Part shown: positions 1-40,518 of the stretch, piece by piece
Layout: each line of letters opens with the position of its first letter
Position numbering within the stretch: position 1 is the first letter of the stretch
DNA from: a virus
Taxonomy: Duplodnaviria; Heunggongvirae; Uroviricota; Caudoviricetes
Direction: 5' to 3' (one strand)
IMG/VR virus record: IMGVR_UViG_3300021400_002728
Location: 229,154-293,153 of that record
Length of the DNA stretch: 64,000 nt
Program-made: the position numbers and the translations under genes
Notes under the pieces: generated by a model
What the model saw: only the letters and a program-made list of their open reading frames with translations
Database searches by the model: none
What the model was told of the DNA's origin: nothing

Positions 1-1223
1 TGATGTGGTAACTTATCTAAATACTTGTATCTGTTTATGAATAGCTCACCTAATACCAATGGATTATCAAGCATTTCAATTTCTCTTTTAAAATACTCAT
101 TCCAGTTAGCAAGTTTAGCTATTTGAGTCACATTCTTAATTTTGTCTGGAAGTGTGTCATGTTCAGAAAAGTCTCTGTTAAATATAAACATAAACTCTTC
201 TTCTGACCAACATACTAGATAATTAAGATTGTTTTGCTGAGCAGTCTCTAACTTCTTTAAGTCTGATTCAGTCCATACATGAATAGCTATGTCAAAAAAT
301 TTAGTATGCTTTGCTTTCCATTCTTCTAAAACTTTAATATCTTCTGAATTATTAGAATCAAAGAAATGACCACCATGTGTCCAAAAGAAATTACATTCTA
401 CATATAAATCTAACTCAGGCACATACATATCACATTCAAATGGATAAACATCTGAAGTATAATGATGTACAGCATTAGGAAATATAGACTGTAATAAATC
501 ATAACATTTATCTTCTGACTGAGATTTTCCATAGGTTCCATGCTCATGTAGAGTTCTTCTACGTTTAACCTTAAATTCTTCAGAACCTAAATATTGTCTA
601 CTTTTGTTAGACTTCCCATAATTATCATAGCCATATCTGGACAGCATTGTAGATTTACCTTTTTCTCTAACTTCCTTAGATTTCATAGGGTTATCTACAC
701 CATAATGCTCCATATATGATTGTTTCTTCTTTTCAAGAACTTCTGAGGAAGCATAAACATTATCTACTCCATAACGTTCTTGAACTGTTTGCTTACACTT
801 TTCTCTATTAGTAAAAGTAGAGTTGCCATATCGCTTTTCTTTAGTAGCAGCAATTTTCTTAGCTGTTTCTGAACTAGCCATTCCAACTCCACCATGATTT
901 TCAATAATAGTTTGTTTAATTTTCTGTTTTACTTCATCTGCTTGAAATGGATTTTCTACTCCATACTTTTCTAAATTAGTCTGTCTAGCTTTCTTTAGTC
1001 TAGACTTAGCATTTGCAGAATTTTTTTCTGACATTATTTTAGCTCTACATTTTTTACAACGTCCTCTTTGTTGATAAAGTTTACTTGGTAATATTTCAAA
1101 ATCACCATGTTCTTTACAAGTAACAATAATAGGAGTTGTATAAGATTTCCAATCTATATTAGAAAAATCATACTCTGGAAATAACTTTTCACATTTTTCT
1201 AAAAATTGTTCCTTTGTAATCAT
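1..1223 (-). CDS. Homing-endonuclease-like protein, partial (runs off window start)
   Basis: Absent from the ORF track. Manual translation from ATG 1223 (SD GAAGGAG) gives MITKEQFLEKCEKLFPEYDFS...CKEHGDF...RCKKC, KYGVEN-type repeats and the nuclease-like motif YPFECDMYVPELDLYVECNFFWTHGG, which is shared with 36975..38009. Confidence 0.8.
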   Translation of the reverse strand, partial: MITKEQFLEKCEKLFPEYDFSNIDWKSYTTPIIVTCKEHGDFEILPSKLYQQRGRCKKCRAKIMSEKNSANAKSRLKKARQTNLEKYGVENPFQADEVKQKIKQTIIENHGGVGMASSETAKKIAATKEKRYGNSTFTNREKCKQTVQERYGVDNVYASSEVLEKKKQSYMEHYGVDNPMKSKEVREKGKSTMLSRYGYDNYGKSNKSRQYLGSEEFKVKRRRTLHEHGTYGKSQSEDKCYDLLQSIFPNAVHHYTSDVYPFECDMYVPELDLYVECNFFWTHGGHFFDSNNSEDIKVLEEWKAKHTKFFDIAIHVWTESDLKKLETAQQNNLNYLVCWSEEEFMFIFNRDFSEHDTLPDKIKNVTQIAKLANWNEYFKREIEMLDNPLVLGELFINRYKYLDKLPH

Positions 1224-1312
1224 TTTTATTTCTCCTTCATAGAAATATAATAAGCAGCTTAGTGATGAAGGCACTATTACTCAAAGGCTCATGACTTCCT
1301 TTGCTCCCTGCA
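1224..1312 (-). promoter_or_regulatory. Structured leader RNA, copy A (three-way junction plus kissing loop on SD hairpin)
   Basis: Stems AAAGG/CCUUU, UAGUG/CACUA and UAUUUCU/AGAAAUA. Loop CCUUCAU is complementary to SD loop AUGAAGG. Covaries with copy B. Confidence 0.75.
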
Positions 1313-1320
1313 TTATTAAC

Positions 1321-2164
1321 TTAATTGTAGAGATACTCGTATATCTCCAATGCAGTCATTTCTTTTTCTTCGCCGGCTACACGAACTTTAATTTTTTCGT
1401 CTTTATCAAACTCACGACCGGTAATCCAAATTTTACCAGTCCAGTCTGTGGGCTTATAGTCTGCGACGTCATTCAAACCAATTTTCTGCATCTTCTTATT
1501 ACGAGAATACATAACTGAACGTCCAATTCTTAAAATCTCTGCAGCCTCTTGAACAGAGTTAGCAACGGCAACTACACCATTCATTCCCTTAAAAGGATAA
1601 ACATTATTAGACTATATCATATTCTCTAATTAGAGAACCCTACCACTTCGATTTAATAGACTGATATTAGACTAATCTCATCTAAATGCTAACCATATTG
1701 GCTCTACTCTACTTACTTCGTGCAAATGCCTTATTTTCATACCGTATTTCAGGTCCTATAGCTTTCGATAGTCGTTGAACCCGTCTCTGTTACCAAGACT
1801 TGGCTGCTGATTTTCCATTCTTATAACCCTTAGGATTTAACCATAGGTCATCCAAATTATTTTTTCTGCTTTCGCTGCATATCACGTTTAGTATTTCTCT
1901 TACGTTGTAGCTAATTTGGCATTAGGTTCGTATTCATTATAAGAATACTGTTCCAGCAATTCAATAGGGAATTTTTCACGCATGTCACCATACGCGGGAG
2001 CTTCATCCTTTAAAAACGCACTCCGTTTGCTTTATGTCTACAAGCGCAACCGATATTTTATTATTATGTTCGATTCTTTAGGCTTTCGCCTAAATACAAT
2101 GGAATATGACATTCCTCAAAGTGACACTATTGTGCGAAATGAGTCCTCGTTTAGCTGTCTCCAT
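1321..2164 (-). CDS. Fragment of FtsK/HerA-like ATPase paralog A: mini IntC + bypass element + group I intron; coding segments 2164-2093, 2071-2020, 1601-1321 (~134 aa)
   Basis: SD AAGGAGGTG precedes METAKRGLISHN|SVTLRNVIFHCI[gap]EHNNKISVALVDIKQTEF/YPFKGMNGVVAVANSV. This aligns without gaps to SVCEQSIVGHVSRYSDRFQLVGVDCKRVEFNLLRGVKGVKGVALDV of gene B. Confidence 0.8.
1602..2019 (-). ncRNA. Group I intron in ATPase gene A (418 nt, no ORF)
   Basis: Core motifs GAAUUGCUGGAA, AAUCAGCAGCC, GUUCAACGACUA and UGAUAUAGUCU. P1 is GGAGU|...GCUCC with a U-G pair, P10 is AAAGGAU/AUCCUUU, and the intron ends in G. Removal restores ...QTEFYPFKG. Confidence 0.9.
2072..2095 (-). other. Putative programmed translational bypass element (take-off AUU, UAG, hairpin, landing AUC)
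   Basis: ATT TAG GCG AAA GCC TAA AGA ATC, with hairpin UUUAGGC-GAAA-GCCUAAA. Removing 21 nt restores collinearity with the paralog. Confidence 0.7.
2129..2164 (-). other. Mini split-intein C fragment (12 aa, METAKRGLISHN, +1 Ser)
   Basis: Has its own SD and ATG inside the 3' end of the upstream endonuclease gene. Ends His-Asn followed by the Ser equivalent to the Walker A GK-S serine. Confidence 0.8.
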
Positions 2165-3257
2165 TGTAATCATCACCTCCTTTTATAAACTGTTTAGTTT
2201 GAGCTATATTTTTACATTTTCTACAACAGTACATTTGATAACCTCTAGTGAAGTTAATATACTTAGTAGGTTTATTACAAACTAAACATTTCCCTTCATT
2301 ATTAGATTTTATATATGTATCATAATATTCTTTGCAAGTAATCTGTTCATTAAATCTAATATGTGCAGACAGATAATTACCATTTTGAAAAGTCTGATTA
2401 CATATTAGACATGTCATTGGATTATTTTTTATTTTAGGTACATATACAATAGTTCTTGGTTTATCATACTTAAATTTTTTATACCAATATTTATCTTTAT
2501 ACTTCTCTTCACAATACTCTAAATATTGCTTAATATCACTATATGACCATACTATAATGTTGTTTGTATCAATGCATTTTTGTTTATCAGAGTCTTTTAA
2601 TGTGCCATCTGAATTTAGATATTGATTACCTTTAACTTCTATAATATCAGCATTTATTTTAAAGTCAGGAAAATATTTATGTGTAATATTATTTGAGTCA
2701 GTATAAGTCAATATGATAGGTAAACGTTCTATAGGTATATTATGATCTTTATGCCAAATATATACGGCAACTTCCCAAGATGAATCAAATAATTGATTAT
2801 CATAACTATAATATTTTCTAGACTGTTGGATATTTTTGTCTTGCATTGGATGTTCAACACCATATTTAGCTAAACTGTTCTTCTTATGTTCAACCTTAAA
2901 ATAATCAGTTTTGAATATTTCATCTTGTCCATATTTAGCTTTTATAGTTTTCCTAATCTTAGATCTAACTTCTTTAGAACTTAATACACTTTCTACACCA
3001 TATCTTTCTAGATTAGTGTCTTTATGTTTCTGTTTACATTGTTCTGTATTATGAGAACATCGTAAGCAATATTCAAAATATCCATATATAACATTTTTGA
3101 ACTTAGTAGGTTTTCCGCAGGTTTTACAAAATCCATCATTGGTTTTATGTAAATAAGTATCATAGTATTGTTTAGTTTCTATTTTATGTGCTTGCTTAAT
3201 ATGTCCTCCAAATCCAATATTAGATTCAAATTCTTTTCCACAAATAAGACATTTCAT
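2151..3257 (-). CDS. Free-standing homing-endonuclease-like protein (Zn-finger modules, YGVE repeats, PD-(D/E)XK domain)
   Basis: CLICG...H...H and CxxCGKPT modules at both ends; nuclease motif DSSWE...YFPDFKI...IIEVKG. Confidence 0.8.
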   Translation of the reverse strand: MKCLICGKEFESNIGFGGHIKQAHKIETKQYYDTYLHKTNDGFCKTCGKPTKFKNVIYGYFEYCLRCSHNTEQCKQKHKDTNLERYGVESVLSSKEVRSKIRKTIKAKYGQDEIFKTDYFKVEHKKNSLAKYGVEHPMQDKNIQQSRKYYSYDNQLFDSSWEVAVYIWHKDHNIPIERLPIILTYTDSNNITHKYFPDFKINADIIEVKGNQYLNSDGTLKDSDKQKCIDTNNIIVWSYSDIKQYLEYCEEKYKDKYWYKKFKYDKPRTIVYVPKIKNNPMTCLICNQTFQNGNYLSAHIRFNEQITCKEYYDTYIKSNNEGKCLVCNKPTKYINFTRGYQMYCCRKCKNIAQTKQFIKGGDDYNGDS

Positions 3258-35230: not shown

Positions 35231-38200
35231 TTACTGTGGATTCTTAGGTTTTAACTTAATAGTTGTCTTAGGCGCAGGTGCCATAGGCTGATCTGCAGTC
35301 GTTTTATCAATATTAAGCTTAATAACCGGTTTCTGACCTGGAATCTGATTTAATGCTGCTCCAATTCTCTCTCTATTTGAAGGTTGACCAAAATTAGGTT
35401 GAGTAGGTCCAGTAGGAGCACCAAAATTAGGTTGAGCTGGTACAGTAGGTGGTGCAGGTGGAGTTTCAGTCTTAGGTGCAGATCCTCCAAATAAACTAGT
35501 TAAATCATCCATTGATACCGCAGGTGAATCTGCTTCAACCTTAGGTTTATCGTCTTTAGGCTCATCTTTAGACTTCTTACCACCAAACTTAAATGTTACT
35601 GGTTCTTCATCTTCGTCTTCATCATCTTCAAACGTATCTTCTTTCTTAGGCGGAGCTTCTTTCTTAGGTGCGTCATCTTTAAAGAGTTCATCTTCATCAA
35701 GATCTTCATCCTCTTCAAACTCATCCTCTTCTTCTTCGATTTCATCCTCTTCCTCTTCAGGTTCCTCACCAATCTTATGCTGAGGTACCCAACCAGTATT
35801 TAACTCGTCGAAGTTTTTACCACGTCTCTTACATAACTCTACAAACACAGGATTATTGTAAGAAAGCTTCTGATCTTCATCAAACTCCCAGTCCGTTATA
35901 TTGGACATTCTTTTACTTTCATAAAAGTCTAGACTATATCATCATTATATATACTATTACCATATATATAACACCTACCACTTCAATTTAATAGACTTAC
36001 TTTAGACTAATCTCATCTAAATGCTAACCATGTTGGCTTTACTCTACTCATTTACTCTTTATAGTATTTAACTATAAATACACTTTCGATAGTCGTTGAA
36101 CCCACCTCTATTCGAGGCTTGGATGCTGATTTCCCATTCTTATTACCCTTAGGTCTCGCCATTAACGACCTTAGGTCATCTCTTCAATTTTTTCTACTTT
36201 CGTCGCGTTCGCACTTAGTCGTATTTCATACTTATGCTGTAGCTTGAAGAGCTCTTAGGTACGTATCGTTATTTGATACTGTTCCAGCAATTCGATAGGT
36301 TTAAGGAGAACCACTGGGATATTTAATTCTCCGGCTGTGTATAATAGGTCTGAGTTTCAATAATCTCATTACCAGATCCAATGAAACCACGACCTTTAAT
36401 CTGAGGTTTAGCTAACTGAGAAATATCCTTCTCAAACATAAGCTGAGAAGCACCATCATCAAATCCACCAAGAAGAACTGACATCTGAATATTGTTCTTC
36501 AAGTCAGTAGAAATAGTAGAACCTGAAGCTCTCTGACATGCAAGTGCTAAGTGTACTGCAGCAGCACGACCAAGACGGGCAATAGATCCAAGAGCCTGTT
36601 TAACAATATCAACTGACTTATAATCATCAGAGGTCATCAACTCATTCAACTCGTCCGCAAGGAATAAAAGTACCTTAGGCACATAAATACCTTTCGACAT
36701 TCTTATTGAATTCTTATCAATATATGAGTTGTAACCTTTTACTTCAGGTAACTGAGGATTTCTTCCTTCCCATTTACCTTCCATCATGCCATCGTAAATT
36801 TTTTGAATAGTAGTAATAATAGGCTGACGTCCATCAGGATAAATAGCCTTCATTTTACTATAGTTTCTATCAGATTCATCAAGGTCTACCATAAGCTCGA
36901 AGATTTCATCAAACTGAACCTTCTTACCAAATACTTCAAAGTAGTTAACTTCTTTGTCTTTGATTTTATAAACATTATTGCATAGATAACCAAGTATCAA
37001 ACTCAGATTTAGTATAAAATACAAATAATTGTACTTTATTACGTTTAGCTACTTTTAACTTGTGTGTATCTCTAACTGTCCAAGTATGAATAGCATTTTC
37101 AAAATACTTAGATGTTTTAGATTTTTCTATCCACTCTGTTAACTTTTTACTATCATTTTTCTTATTGTATGGATGTAATCCATGTGTCCAATGAAAGTTA
37201 AGTTCAATATAAATATCTTTAGATGGAATGTATAAATCACATACAAAAGGATATTTAGTTGACTTATATCCGTGTTTAGCATCTGGATAAATACTTAAAA
37301 GTTGTTCATAACATAAATCTTCTGTCTTTGATACCTTAAATGAATGATTCTTCTTTTTAGTCAGATAACTTTTATGTTTAATCTCAGCTTTTTCTTTATC
37401 TGACTTCAACATATATGCATCTCTATGTTTCTGACCAATAATCTTCATTTCTTCTTCAGTTTTACTATCAAATGTAGCTTGTCTCTTTGCATAAATTGCT
37501 TTCTTTTCTTCATCAGATTTAGCATAGTATTTGTCTGAAATTTTTTGCTTTACTGATTCTACCGCAAATGGACTAGTTGTTCCATATACCTTAAGACAAG
37601 TTTCTTTATACTTTTTACTATTATTGTATGTTTCATCTCCATACTTTGCTTGGCAAGTAGATTTTCTTTTAAGAATAGATTTCTGTTTTTCATCATCTGT
37701 TCTATTTAATAAAGACTCACTCGTCTTATTTGGATTATTGTATGTAGGAGTTCCATACCTAATAATTTTAGTAGTTTTAACTGAATTAGAATGTATAGTA
37801 GATTTATTTAAGCATGATCTAGAACAATACTTATTATAACCTTTGAAAATATCCTTAAAGTTTGTAGGTTTACCGCATACTTCACATACACCTTTTCCAA
37901 AGTACATATCATAATATGTTTGTTGACTAATGTTATGCTGTTCTAAATGTTTCTTAAACAACCTATTTGAAATTGGTTGATTACATATTCTGCATATTGT
38001 TTCATTCATTCTAATTTCTCCTTAGACTATATCTTCACCCTATTACTAGGGGACTACCTTTTCGATTTAAGGGAATCTCACCCACCATATAGGCCCTACG
38101 AGTATTGCTACAAATATTCGAGATTTCCACTCTTATTTTACGATGTAGCCTCTGTAAGCTCTAGTCGTTGAACTTTTACCCTCGACTTAACTAACTTATG

Positions 38201-39448
38201 GTCTAAGTATAACGTTAGGGTACTTAGCTGCTAAGGTTCCTCATTCTACTAGCCCTTAGGATTTAACCATAGGCCAAACAATCAATTTTTTCTACTTTCG
38301 TTGCATTCACATCTATTCTTTCGAATTATGTTGTAGCTTGATTGTTGTTAGAGTCGTATTCATTATAAGAATACTGTTCCAGCAATTAAATAGTTTATTT
38401 CTCACGCAGATTACTCTACGCGCAGGCCATACATGTTTATAAAACCTGCATCTGTTCCATGAACTTAAATCTGTCCATCATAATCTGTTGGAAGTTGGCC
38501 ACTGCATCTGCTGCTGTAGGTACATCCAACGCGACACCTTTCACGCCTTTTCGGTTAACTCTATAATTTTCATTATAAACCTGACTATATCTCGTATATA
38601 AATTTATATACTCCTATCACTTTCAACTGTAACTCATCTTCAGTCGTACTCTCCTTATGGAGATAGTCGATACACCTTCAATTAAGCTTGGCACGGTATT
38701 ACCTGCTATCTTACGAAAGACCGTAGGATCTCTTAGTCAGCTGCTTCGTCTATGGTCTAAGGCTATATATCTTGTTGTAACACTTCATATAGCAGTCTTA
38801 TTCAACTGATACCGTTAGCAATATAGAATAAGATCTATATCACACCCTTGAGTAATGAGGTTCAATAGGAATGCGCAAAGTTACTTACGCCGCGTAAAAG
38901 GTTAAATTCTACTCTTTTACAGTCAACACCTACTAATTGGAATCGATCTGAGTAACGCGATACGTGACCCACTATGCTTTGTTCACACCGAATTGTTATC
39001 AATAAGCTTTTTATCTTATTTTCTATGTCATTACAACATAAGTCCAGCGTACCTTTTCATTACAGATTCTGCATCTGTGTCATCCAATGGTGAGGCCTCT
39101 TGGAAGTATTATATTCTCTAATATCTCAATTAAAGGTTCAACTTCTACGCGTTGCCGTTGACTATACTTTTACATATAGCCTTAACATTCTGATTATGGT
39201 TGCAAACCATTTTCCAGCTTAATTCCTCACTAATAATCCATAATTTACTTGATGACTTCATTATGGACGGCGAACTAATAGCTATGCATTTATTGCACTA
39301 TTAGTCAGTTTACCGATTTACCTGAGTTGTGAAATACAGATCCATCAGGCATTAGATACATAGGGTCATCTTCAAGCGAAAAACCAAAATATTGGTCGGT
39401 TTTGTTCAATGGTTTAACACTGAACTCAACCTGTTTCACTACACTCAT
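35231..39448 (-). CDS. FtsK/HerA-like ATPase B, C-terminal precursor: IntC + 5 exons (39448-39312, 38988-38887, 38551-38444, 36980-36326, 35893-35231; 554 aa)
   Basis: The spliced frame is open end to end (1665 nt): ...HN|SGKSV (3' half of Walker A), LLFLADE (Walker B), ARLGRAAAVHLALACQR (FtsK/HerA Arg-finger/Gln motif), KGRG, then an acidic and Pro-rich tail. Confidence 0.88.
35894..36325 (-). ncRNA. Group I intron D (432 nt)
   Basis: P1 GGAGAAU|...GUUCUCC; P10 UCCCAGU/ACUGGGA; motifs GAAUUGCUGGAA, AAUCAGCAUCC, GUUCAACGACUA and GAUAUAGUCU. Joins PEN/DWEF. Confidence 0.92.
36975..38009 (-). CDS. Intron-encoded homing endonuclease-like protein
   Basis: Zn-finger CRIC..H..H and CEVCGKPT; nuclease-like YPFVCDLYIP..IELNFHWTHG. 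Starts right after the intron S motif. Confidence 0.85.
   Translation of the reverse strand: MNETICRICNQPISNRLFKKHLEQHNISQQTYYDMYFGKGVCEVCGKPTNFKDIFKGYNKYCSRSCLNKSTIHSNSVKTTKIIRYGTPTYNNPNKTSESLLNRTDDEKQKSILKRKSTCQAKYGDETYNNSKKYKETCLKVYGTTSPFAVESVKQKISDKYYAKSDEEKKAIYAKRQATFDSKTEEEMKIIGQKHRDAYMLKSDKEKAEIKHKSYLTKKKNHSFKVSKTEDLCYEQLLSIYPDAKHGYKSTKYPFVCDLYIPSKDIYIELNFHWTHGLHPYNKKNDSKKLTEWIEKSKTSKYFENAIHTWTVRDTHKLKVAKRNKVQLFVFYTKSEFDTWLSMQ
36981..38443 (-). mobile_element. Group I intron C (1463 nt) carrying a homing endonuclease gene
   Basis: P1 GCAGGU|...GCCUGC; P10 UUAUAAACAU/AUGUUUAUAA; motifs AAUUGCUGGAA, GUUCAACGACUA and AAGAUAUAGUCU. Joins MQV/NNVY. Confidence 0.9.
38552..38886 (-). ncRNA. 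Group I intron B (335 nt)
   Basis: P1 GCGU|AAG..UUUGCGC; motifs GCUAACGG, GUAAUACCGUGCCAAG, GUAUCGACUA and AGAUAUAGUCAG. Joins LLRGV/KGVKGV, collinear with gene A. Confidence 0.85.
38989..39311 (-). ncRNA. Group I intron A (323 nt), immediately after Walker A
   Basis: P1 CGGU|...GCCG; motifs AAUUAAGCUGGAA, AAUCAGAA, CAACGCGUAG and AAGGUACGCUG. Joins SGKSV/CEQ. Confidence 0.85.
39326..39448 (-). other. Split-intein C fragment (41 aa)
   Basis: MSVVKQVEFSVKPLNKTDQYFGFSLEDDPMYLMPDGSVFHN followed by Ser. Block F (YFGFSL) and block G (VFHN). SD GGAGG and ATGA overlap with the upstream gene. Confidence 0.92.
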
Positions 39449-40518
39449 ATGTAATTTTCCTCCTTTACTAATTTTCCTGCACCATATATAGTTAATCTTC
39501 CATCTGAATATATAATAGTTGGTTTAGGAATTTTCGTAATTAAATTATTCTTGTTAAAATCTACTGTAGAATATTTATCAACTCCATGTAATAAACTTTT
39601 CAATAGTTTTAACTGCACATCAAAATCTTCAAACTCATAGATATGAATCAACCTAATTCCACTATCTCTGCAGTTAATAGATTTCTTAAGATGATAATCA
39701 ACTTCAGTTCCATTTTCTACTGCATGATAGTAAGATCCATTAAATTCAATTGCAAGTTTTAGATCAGGTAAGTAAATATCAATTTCATTTGGTGGAATTA
39801 CTTTTCTAGAATTAGTTGTAATTTTACCTTTATAATTCTTTTGAATCATTTCAACCAATTGTCTTTCTTTAGATGATCTATTACTACTTTTGAAGTTTTT
39901 GATGTAGTCTATATCAGATTTCTTTATAAGTCTTCTATTTTTATAAACCAATATATCTATATCATATATCCATCCACAACATTTATTTAGCTTAAATACA
40001 GACTCAAGATATACTAAATTATGTTCTTTTGCATATTTGTCTACAGCTGCCTCTTGTGACGATAATCGTTTAGCTTTAGCTTCATCTGTATGGCTATTTA
40101 TTTTAGCTTTTTCTGCAATAGATGGTATTTGGTATGAATTAACTACTCCATATCGATCTAATCTAGTTTTAACGGCTTTTTCTTGTATTTGTTGTGACTT
40201 AAATCCAACTCCACCATACTTTTTATTACATGTACGAATAGTTTTAGCTCTAATATTTGTATCTTTTTGTGGATTATCTACACGAAAATGATTCTGTGTA
40301 TTAGGATCAATTTGTGCACATTTAGCACAACAATGTTTCTGATAACCTTTTCTTAAATTTAGAAATGGAGTGGGTTTTCCACATATACATATTCCAGTAT
40401 TAGGCTGTTTTAGATATTGGTCATAATAATCTTTAGGTTTAACATTATGCACTGTATTGATGTGCTTAGATAATCCTTGGTATGATTTTGTGATATGACC
40501 ACATATTTCACACTTCAT
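39445..40518 (-). CDS. Free-standing homing-endonuclease-like protein (Zn finger + Vsr/DUF559-like nuclease)
   Basis: CEICG..H..H, CICGKPT and EIDIYLPDLKLAIEFNGSYYH...GIRLIHIYE. Confidence 0.85.
   Translation of the reverse strand: MKCEICGHITKSYQGLSKHINTVHNVKPKDYYDQYLKQPNTGICICGKPTPFLNLRKGYQKHCCAKCAQIDPNTQNHFRVDNPQKDTNIRAKTIRTCNKKYGGVGFKSQQIQEKAVKTRLDRYGVVNSYQIPSIAEKAKINSHTDEAKAKRLSSQEAAVDKYAKEHNLVYLESVFKLNKCCGWIYDIDILVYKNRRLIKKSDIDYIKNFKSSNRSSKERQLVEMIQKNYKGKITTNSRKVIPPNEIDIYLPDLKLAIEFNGSYYHAVENGTEVDYHLKKSINCRDSGIRLIHIYEFEDFDVQLKLLKSLLHGVDKYSTVDFNKNNLITKIPKPTIIYSDGRLTIYGAGKLVKEENYI

Follow-up and report, generated by a model that had tools for sequence, protein, structure and literature searches.

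The window analysed here, a stretch of 64,000 nucleotides (nt) comprising positions 229,154 to 293,153 of the IMG/VR virus record IMGVR_UViG_3300021400_002728 (Caudoviricetes; a gut phage; 394,266 bp, 32% G+C), carries on its minus strand a gene that, judging from its sequence, is the middle piece of a fractured FtsK/SpoIIIE-type ATPase, and this gene is interrupted by a 21-nt element that begins with an in-frame TAG. The comparison with related loci indicates that these 21 nt are probably a programmed translational bypass (hopping) cassette, not homologous to that of phage T4 gene 60. The initial annotation had proposed a new short element of the gene 60 type from this one sequence, and 37 related loci support the proposal. 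Additionally, we lean towards the view that the element belongs to an undescribed, non-homologous family of natural bypass or "stop-hop" cassettes of large gut and rumen phages, in which gaps of 2-35 nt occur at three hot spots within a single fractured gene for an ATPase; these would be kept by selection, probably as immunity patches against homing endonucleases and an intron competing for the gene, and minimal stop hops such as CUU UAG CUU would be the first natural examples of their kind. A literature search found no published description of this insert system.

Element in the window

The element consists of the following features (window coordinates).

2104..2066, minus strand: piece carrying the element, UUC CAU UGU AUU UAG GCG AAA GCC UAA AGA AUC GAA CAU
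2095-2093, minus strand: take-off codon ATT (Ile), last sense codon before TAG
2075..2092, minus strand: 18-nt coding gap, UAG GCG AAA GCC UAA AGA, with in-frame stops as codons 1 and 5 (TAG at 2092-2090)
2072..2074, minus strand: proposed landing codon ATC (Ile), 21 nt past the first Ile codon; decoding would resume at GAA, 2071-2069
2077..2094, minus strand: take-off hairpin UUUAGGC-GAAA-GCCUAAA, with the last two bases of AUU and UAG in its 5' arm

The sequence and the perfect 7-bp hairpin with GAAA tetraloop reported in the initial annotation were confirmed at 2077-2094 of the minus strand. The minimum free energy of the hairpin was -9.3 kcal/mol (z = -3.7), a value that none of 200 shuffled sequences equalled. 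Perfect hairpins with a 7-bp stem and a 4-nt loop numbered 14 across the window (8.7 expected), and those with a GNRA loop 4 (0.5 expected); the hairpin alone is thus not rare in the window, and its evidential weight lies in its position. Its core, TAGGCGAAAGCCTAA, was unchanged across five lineages (the window phage, L007, L021, L024 and L025) whose flanking sequences differ greatly at silent third codon positions. Both AUU and AUC are read by one tRNA-Ile(GAU), which the phage genome itself encodes.

It had also been claimed that skipping from AUU to AUC gives a product exactly collinear with a paralog over 30 amino acids (aa), and this held. With the 21 nt skipped and a group I intron spliced out, the product reads SVTLRNVIFHCIEHNNKISVALVDIKQTEF; the paralog, SV followed by CEQSIVGHVSRYSDRFQLVGVDCKRVEF, is also 30 aa long. 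The paralogous exon used lies at about 38985-38880, and its uninterrupted relative is locus L032. A genome-wide search found no further copies of the 21-nt element in the 394-kb genome; as a single-copy sequence, it was ruled out as a repeat family.

Insertion status and allele series in relatives

A search with the protein encoded by exon 2, downstream of the intron, retrieved 157 metagenome relatives, many of them on contigs of 300-425 kb. The 37 related loci were fetched and their exon 1 aligned at the nucleotide level. The proteins P0002, P0004 and P0008 were full-length and unbroken (...NVIFHCIEHNNKISVALVDIKQTEFYPFKG...), and L005 and L006 were likewise uninterrupted. Since the uninterrupted orthologs read FHC(I/V)EHNNK, the 21 nt are an insertion.

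Most of the 37 loci carried between one and three short inserts, at three sites that all fall inside a stretch of 25 codons: site B (between TL and RN), site A (between HC(I/V) and EH) and site C (between DI and KQ). About 19 insert allele families, with lengths of 5-38 nt, were distinguished. They are given below as take-off codon / gap / landing codon.

Site A: ATT / TAGGCGAAAGCCTAAAGA / ATC, window allele
Site A: ATT / TAGGCGAAAGCCTAAAGA + AAA or AAG / ATY, L007, L021, L024, L025
Site A: ATT / TAGGCCTAGTGCCTAAAATAA / ATY, same stem with a different loop, L001, L004, L023
Site A: ATT / TAGGCCTGGCCTAAGTACACAAGTxx / ATT, 29 nt, L003, L012
Site A: GTA / CCGCGTCTCCCGTAATGGGAGATGTGGAATAAAAA / GTT, gap of 35 nt starting with CCG, L029
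Site A: ATT / TAGACG / ATT, L034
Site A: ATT / TAGCTG / GTC, L028
Site A: 5-nt inserts, ATT / TA / GTC (L013) and ATT / TG / ACC (L036, TGA stop)
Site B: CTT / TAG / CTT or CTC
Site B: CTT / TAGCAAGTGTAA / CTT
Site B: CTC / ATACGAGTGTAA / CTT
Site B: CTT / TAGCGGCGTGACAC / CTT
Site B: CGC / TAGAAA / CGT
Site B: CGT / TAG... / AGT, two lengths
Site B: CGT / TAGCTAAA / CAC
Site C: ATT / TAG / CTC
Site C: ATT / TAGCTGA / ATT or ATA, 10-nt insert
Site C: ATT / TAGCTAG / ACC

An in-frame stop stands right after the last sense codon in 17 of the 19 families (16 TAG and one TGA). Of the two exceptions, one has CCG as its first gap codon, which is used at 1.0 per 1000 codons in the phage genome. In 11 families (Ile/Ile, Leu/Leu, Arg/Arg and Val/Val) one tRNA reads both the take-off and the landing codon, and in the other eight the two codons match at two of three positions; same-tRNA pairs across four codon families indicate that take-off and landing codons covary. 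The initial annotation had named empty alleles and conserved matched codons in related phages as bearing on its proposal; the empty alleles exist, and the matching of codons stands for those 11 families but is only partial in the remainder.

Two of the alleles have already entered public databases under another reading: the proteins P0045 and P0048, from L034 and L035, were called with TAG as Gln, which gives apparent 3-residue insertions (IQTI and RQKR). A naive genome-wide scan for a codon, a stop, a gap and the same codon, with long frames on both sides, returned 989 matches, mostly noise and unusable without homology.

Reading frame and selection

Insert length was not a multiple of three in 8 of the 19 families, and an uncompensated net frameshift was present in at least 10 lineages (L012, L013, L016/17, L018/19, L020, L026, L027/30, L028, L029, L036 and L037), including examples with a sole insert in L012 (29 nt), L027 (11 nt) and L037 (10 nt). 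After removal of inserts and introns, the 20 alleles that could be aligned over the whole gene, 19 of them insert-bearing, gave a conserved protein of 131 aa, free of further stops and frameshifts except that L025 and L026 end slightly earlier at a natural stop and L013 is locally misaligned. The ratio of non-synonymous to synonymous substitution rates (dN/dS) was 0.03-0.27 both upstream and downstream of the sites for pairs with an estimable synonymous rate, this rate being saturated at most synonymous sites; one short middle segment of 13 codons gave 0.40.

The inserts themselves were 86-100% identical between lineages, compared with 38-66% for third codon positions of the whole gene. Between L007 and L025, 22 of 24 insert positions were identical, versus 48 of 128 third positions over the gene and 3 of 17 in the adjacent upstream codons. 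A scar without use would be expected to drift as silent sites do; the insert does not, and is thus constrained, although some of the divergence may be older than the gain of the insert, and short-patch transfer may be a partial cause of its identity.

RNA structure and proposed decoding

All the long inserts form hairpins (z from -1.6 to -5.3) in which the take-off codon lies within the 5' arm or next to it; the shortest, of 5-10 nt, are unstructured. The site B inserts contribute the 3' arm of a hairpin whose other arm is upstream coding sequence, and the two arms show compensatory variation, as in the pairs GTTACACTT/AAGTGTAAC, GTTACACTC/GAGTGTAAC and GTTACGC/GCGTGAC.

In the proposed mechanism, the ribosome would translate METAKRGLISHNSVTLRNVIFHCI and arrive with AUU in the P site and UAG in the A site, where peptidyl-tRNA-Ile(GAU) would unpair in place of termination. 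The hairpin, which starts at the second base of AUU and runs through the UAG into the sequence after it, would help to block the release factor and drive the mRNA forward. The tRNA would then re-pair with AUC 21 nt downstream, and decoding would resume at GAA, with NVIFHCIEHNNK as the predicted junction peptide. Bypass together with splicing of the group I intron would yield a single polypeptide of 134 aa, the middle piece of the ATPase.

RNA data were available as assembled contigs from four metatranscriptomes. Circularly permuted intron RNA of relatives was present in two of them, with joints 2003>1598 and 2012>1599; such permuted (circular) intron contigs show that the intron is excised in nature. 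In one 151-nt contig from an RNA library, exon 2 is joined to exon 1 of a relative with ATT TAGCTGA ATT still in place, a weak observation given a depth of 2.2 and possible carry-over of DNA.

TAG is a genuine stop in the phage genome, where it ends 28 of 334 long open reading frames (ORFs). The region C1:104893-125227 of the genome, outside the window, contains a transfer-messenger RNA gene (tag ANNVQMAA) and 38 predicted tRNA genes, of which two are unusual. One of the two is a putative suppressor tRNA with anticodon UUA, predicted at C1:114279-114350 with a poor acceptor stem; the other has a predicted 6-nt anticodon loop. The 24 residues upstream of the take-off site are nearly invariant but are also part of the protein, and have no evident similarity to the KKYK signal of gene 60.

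Evaluation of bypassing and of alternative explanations

Several points weigh against programmed bypassing. Its support is comparative, and both hopping and its efficiency are inferred. The contigs of the four metatranscriptomes do not cover 2075-2105, and around it only the bin 2044-2074 is represented (1.85 in X17). Neither a nascent-peptide signal like that of gene 60 was recognisable upstream of the take-off codon nor a Shine-Dalgarno-like element in the gap, which ends in ...GCCUAAAGA before AUC, with no GAG or GGAG, and the nascent chain at site B would be only about 13-16 residues long. Additionally, the landing codons of eight allele families agree with the take-off codon at just two of three positions, and two families (with CCG and ATA) have no stop directly after the take-off codon. 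The loci are mosaics with no single clear recombination boundary, so that part of the signal of purifying selection may predate the gain of the inserts, and the flanking repeats could partly reflect the insertion mechanism instead of selection for re-pairing. Finally, the window allele is in frame, and with a putative suppressor tRNA a double readthrough is conceivable.

Such readthrough, in which the phage's own suppressor tRNA with anticodon UUA would read both UAG and UAA and add seven residues (I-X-A-K-A-X-R-I) in the helix after the P-loop, is nevertheless considered unlikely. A tRNA of this kind is predicted in the genome, and the 21- and 24-nt alleles that carry the hairpin all have lengths divisible by three; on the other hand, its acceptor stem is poor, TAG and TAA are normal stops genome-wide, and allele A2 has three stops in seven codons. 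The initial annotation had argued that the UAA excludes readthrough. The predicted suppressor weakens this argument for the in-frame allele of the window, but the frame-breaking alleles of relatives exclude readthrough as the general mechanism, as it cannot repair their inserts of 5, 10, 11, 17, 29 and 38 nt at the same sites. It also leaves unexplained the rule that a stop comes first, the matched flanking codons and the conserved RNA hairpin. An equally unlikely explanation is a decaying or dispensable gene remnant, under which the insert, as a scar or a patch conferring immunity to an endonuclease, would simply cut the protein short at 24 residues, with nothing made downstream from this start. 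This gene encodes only the middle of an ATPase, has a homing endonuclease gene on either side and is 88 kb from the N-terminal piece, and the loci are recombination mosaics, all of which would suit a remnant. Decay does not agree, however, with 131 codons free of other stops and frameshifts in the 20 fully aligned alleles (19 with inserts), with the low dN/dS of both the upstream and the downstream part, with an intron retained and excised in nature, or with inserts that are strongly constrained and have ordered features, unlike junk.

Termination at UAG followed by re-initiation at a nearby AUC or AUU would produce two polypeptides cooperating non-covalently. The landing codons AUU, AUC and AUA of sites A and C are weak start codons and the gene family is already split into pieces, but CUU, CUC and CGU at site B and GUU in one site A allele are non-start codons, each covarying with its take-off codon; no Shine-Dalgarno sequence precedes the landing codon, and the Walker A Ser and the start of the helix would fall on an N-terminal peptide of 13-24 residues alone. 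Re-initiation is therefore regarded as very unlikely. Least credible of all is removal of the insert from the RNA by a cleavage-and-ligation activity. Large phages can encode RNA repair enzymes and the long inserts are hairpins, yet the inserts of 5-10 nt are unstructured, the RNA-library contig of a relative keeps the 10-nt insert of site C (weak evidence, as said above), and removal gives no reason for an in-frame stop in first place or for matched codons. Simple +1, -1 or -2 frameshifting at the same 10-nt insert was rejected, as these frames run into a stop at once. Programmed bypassing thus remains the preferred explanation of the insert.

Interrupted gene and its group I intron

The interrupted gene and the two genes that adjoin it have the following features.

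2174..2180, minus strand: strong Shine-Dalgarno GGAGGTG, read from the sequence, 9 nt upstream of the start ATG 2164-2162
2093..2164, minus strand: exon 1a, codons 1-24, METAKRGLISHN followed by SVTLRNVIFHCI, ending in the take-off ATT
2020..2071, minus strand: exon 1b, EHNNKISVALVDIKQTE and the first base of a Phe codon, same frame resumed after the gap and ATC
1602..2019, minus strand: group I intron, 418 nt, no ORF, P1 GGAGU/GCUCC, terminal G at 1602
1321..1601, minus strand: exon 2, (F)YPFKGMNGVV...EIYEYLYN and stop TAA 1323-1321, completing the product
2151..3257, minus strand: free-standing homing-endonuclease-like gene with C2H2 zinc finger and DUF7487, immediately upstream, with a stop that overlaps the start region of the interrupted gene
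3..1274, minus strand: second homing-endonuclease-like gene, directly downstream, running off the window; 624 aa in the genome, with a methyltransferase-like tail

The frame from ATG 2164 reads METAKRGLISHNSVTLRNVIFHCI and then meets TAG. Ser13 of exon 1a corresponds to the Walker A Ser, and the GLISHN of this exon resembles intein block G or is an N-terminal tail of the split gene; the intein-less form in L008-L011 reads ...CVGSTGGGKSVTLRN.... The edited product of 134 aa covers about positions 53-135 of the FtsK_SpoIIIE profile. Against PF01580 (gathering cut-off of 24 bits), the intein-less ortholog L009, which reads ...CVGSTGGGKSVTLRNVIFHCIEHNNK..., scored 37.9 bits, above the cut-off, and the 131-aa piece alone 20.8 bits.

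The intron matched Rfam RF00028 with E = 4.4e-4 in a permissive search, under the gathering score, and at gathering thresholds Rfam gave no match anywhere in the window. The canonical core strings, the U-G pair at the 5' splice site, the terminal G and excision were all found, which places it among group I introns; its core is similar to those of introns of Staphylococcus Twort-like phages. Orthologs without the intron are contiguous exactly at the predicted splice junction. In the phage GenBank collection there was no close relative: the DNA matches were to the intron core only, and tblastn with exon 2 gave none. The window contains three related ORF-less group I introns, at 1602-2019, 38020-38440 and 35930-36320, all on the minus strand. 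In L028 (about 330 nt) and L030 (about 290 nt) a second interruption lies between RIGR and SVMYSRNKK, and is presumably another intron.

The N-terminal piece of the ATPase is located outside the window, at C1:318670-319960 (minus strand), 88 kb from the C-piece. Inside its P-loop, between CVGS and TGGGK, it contains a Hint/intein-like domain of about 150 residues (PLGLNTIVPT...AAYIYQ), and then a 15-residue tail. In the C-piece, the head before the ATPase part is only 12 residues long and ends in GLISHN. These ends may belong to a split intein that is unusual in its very short C-part, or may be extensions at head and tail like those of T4 genes split by MobA.

Neighbouring endonuclease genes and the paralogous locus

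Four paralogous endonuclease-like genes are present in the window, at 3-1274, 2151-3257, 36975-38009 and 39445-40518, all on the minus strand. They share a C2H2 zinc finger at the N terminus, DUF7487 repeats and, at the C terminus, a nuclease-like module, and all four adjoin pieces of the two FtsK-like genes. The paralogous FtsK-like gene, at 36323-39448 (minus strand), opens with a 41-residue split-intein C-half (MSVVKQVEF...DGSVFHN, followed by SGKSV); at least two introns surround its exon at about 38985-38880, and a further intron and endonuclease gene lie at 38009-36975. In L032 this paralogous gene is uninterrupted. Short inserts of the bypass type had been considered in the paralog at 39330-39190 and were rejected, because the uninterrupted L032 identifies this stretch as a group I intron and puts the missing exon at about 38985-38880.

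Comparison with known bypass systems

The phage element shares several features with T4 gene 60 (gene 60 features as in PMC5009743). In both, the take-off codon stands directly before UAG, a stable tetraloop hairpin includes the two in its 5' arm, and the landing codon is read by the tRNA of the take-off codon. As in the MobA/gene 60 cassette of T4 (10.1101/2022.08.31.505936), an enzyme gene is divided by a free-standing homing endonuclease gene, and the insert falls close to the 5' end of its downstream part, 13-37 codons in for the inserts described here. On the other hand, there is no sequence homology, and the host gene encodes an FtsK-like ATPase (FtsK_SpoIIIE) instead of a topoisomerase large subunit; the published homologs of gene 60 are all in topoisomerase genes. 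The gap measures 18 nt here (2-35 nt in relatives) versus 47 nt, take-off occurs at Ile, Leu, Arg and Val codons and not at Gly or Asp, and the loop is GAAA, not UUCG. A gap Shine-Dalgarno and a KKYK-type nascent peptide are not recognisable here. Moreover, the phage inserts form many independent alleles at three hot spots, in low-GC gut and rumen phages and not in T4-like phages of Proteobacteria.

The mitochondrial byps of Magnusiomyces capitatus are likewise short and hairpin-prone, some of them with lengths that are not multiples of three, and they are skipped within conserved genes. Unlike the phage inserts, they measure 27-55 nt, occur in 12 genes of one mitochondrial genome and have an unused codon, not a stop, in the A site; the inserts described here are decoded by bacterial ribosomes, have the stop first and are confined to a single gene so far. 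Landing matches at two of three positions also recall the yeast mitochondrial byps (PMC5009743).

The alleles CUU UAG CUU/CUC, AUU UAG ACG AUU and CGC UAG AAA CGU of relatives, each a stop flanked by matched codons, have exactly the form of synthetic Escherichia coli stop hops (9 nt read as one amino acid), which were seen only in engineered constructs and at low efficiency; a 2016 review knew of no natural in-frame stop hop (PMC5009743). Short gaps have also been proposed from sequence in the terminase of Streptomyces phage Hau3 and in Prevotella loescheii plaA (29 nt) (PMC5009743; PMC10732093). These candidates involve the rare UUA codon (Streptomyces) or are poorly characterised, and neither has a comparable multi-allele series.

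Possible function and significance

The position of the inserts relates them to the mobile elements of the locus. Sites A and B are 12-60 nt downstream of the split point of the gene, adjoining the endonuclease gene, and site C is 13 nt upstream of the insertion site of the intron. Inserts at site C were found in none of the nine intron-bearing loci (the window, L012, L013, L021, L023-L025, L028 and L030), versus seven distinct intron-less lineages (carriers L002, L003, L016-L020, L026 and L037). That site C insert and intron never occur together suggests that they are two alternative blocks of the same endonuclease target. In T4, the bypass insert protects the DNA from the MobA endonuclease (10.1101/2022.08.31.505936). 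The inserts may likewise exist because they break homing-endonuclease recognition sites without altering the protein. No link was found between insert type and endonuclease subfamily, and several subfamilies flank interrupted and uninterrupted alleles alike.

To our knowledge, T4 gene 60 with its homologs (one gene family) is in effect the only well-studied case of efficient programmed bypassing, and the yeast mitochondrial byps are the sole other established set. An independent system of the bacterial type would supply a natural mutational series of about 19 variants, with gaps of 2-35 nt, with or without a hairpin, and with exact or two-of-three landing, which would show the minimal needs for take-off, sliding and landing. 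If the proposed decoding is true, short stop hops, so far known from engineered constructs only, are used in nature. Gene callers split such genes or mis-assign the genetic code, as for the two database proteins read with TAG as Gln. Should the link to homing endonucleases prove true, the view that bypass cassettes evolve as a means of changing the DNA without changing the protein would become more general.

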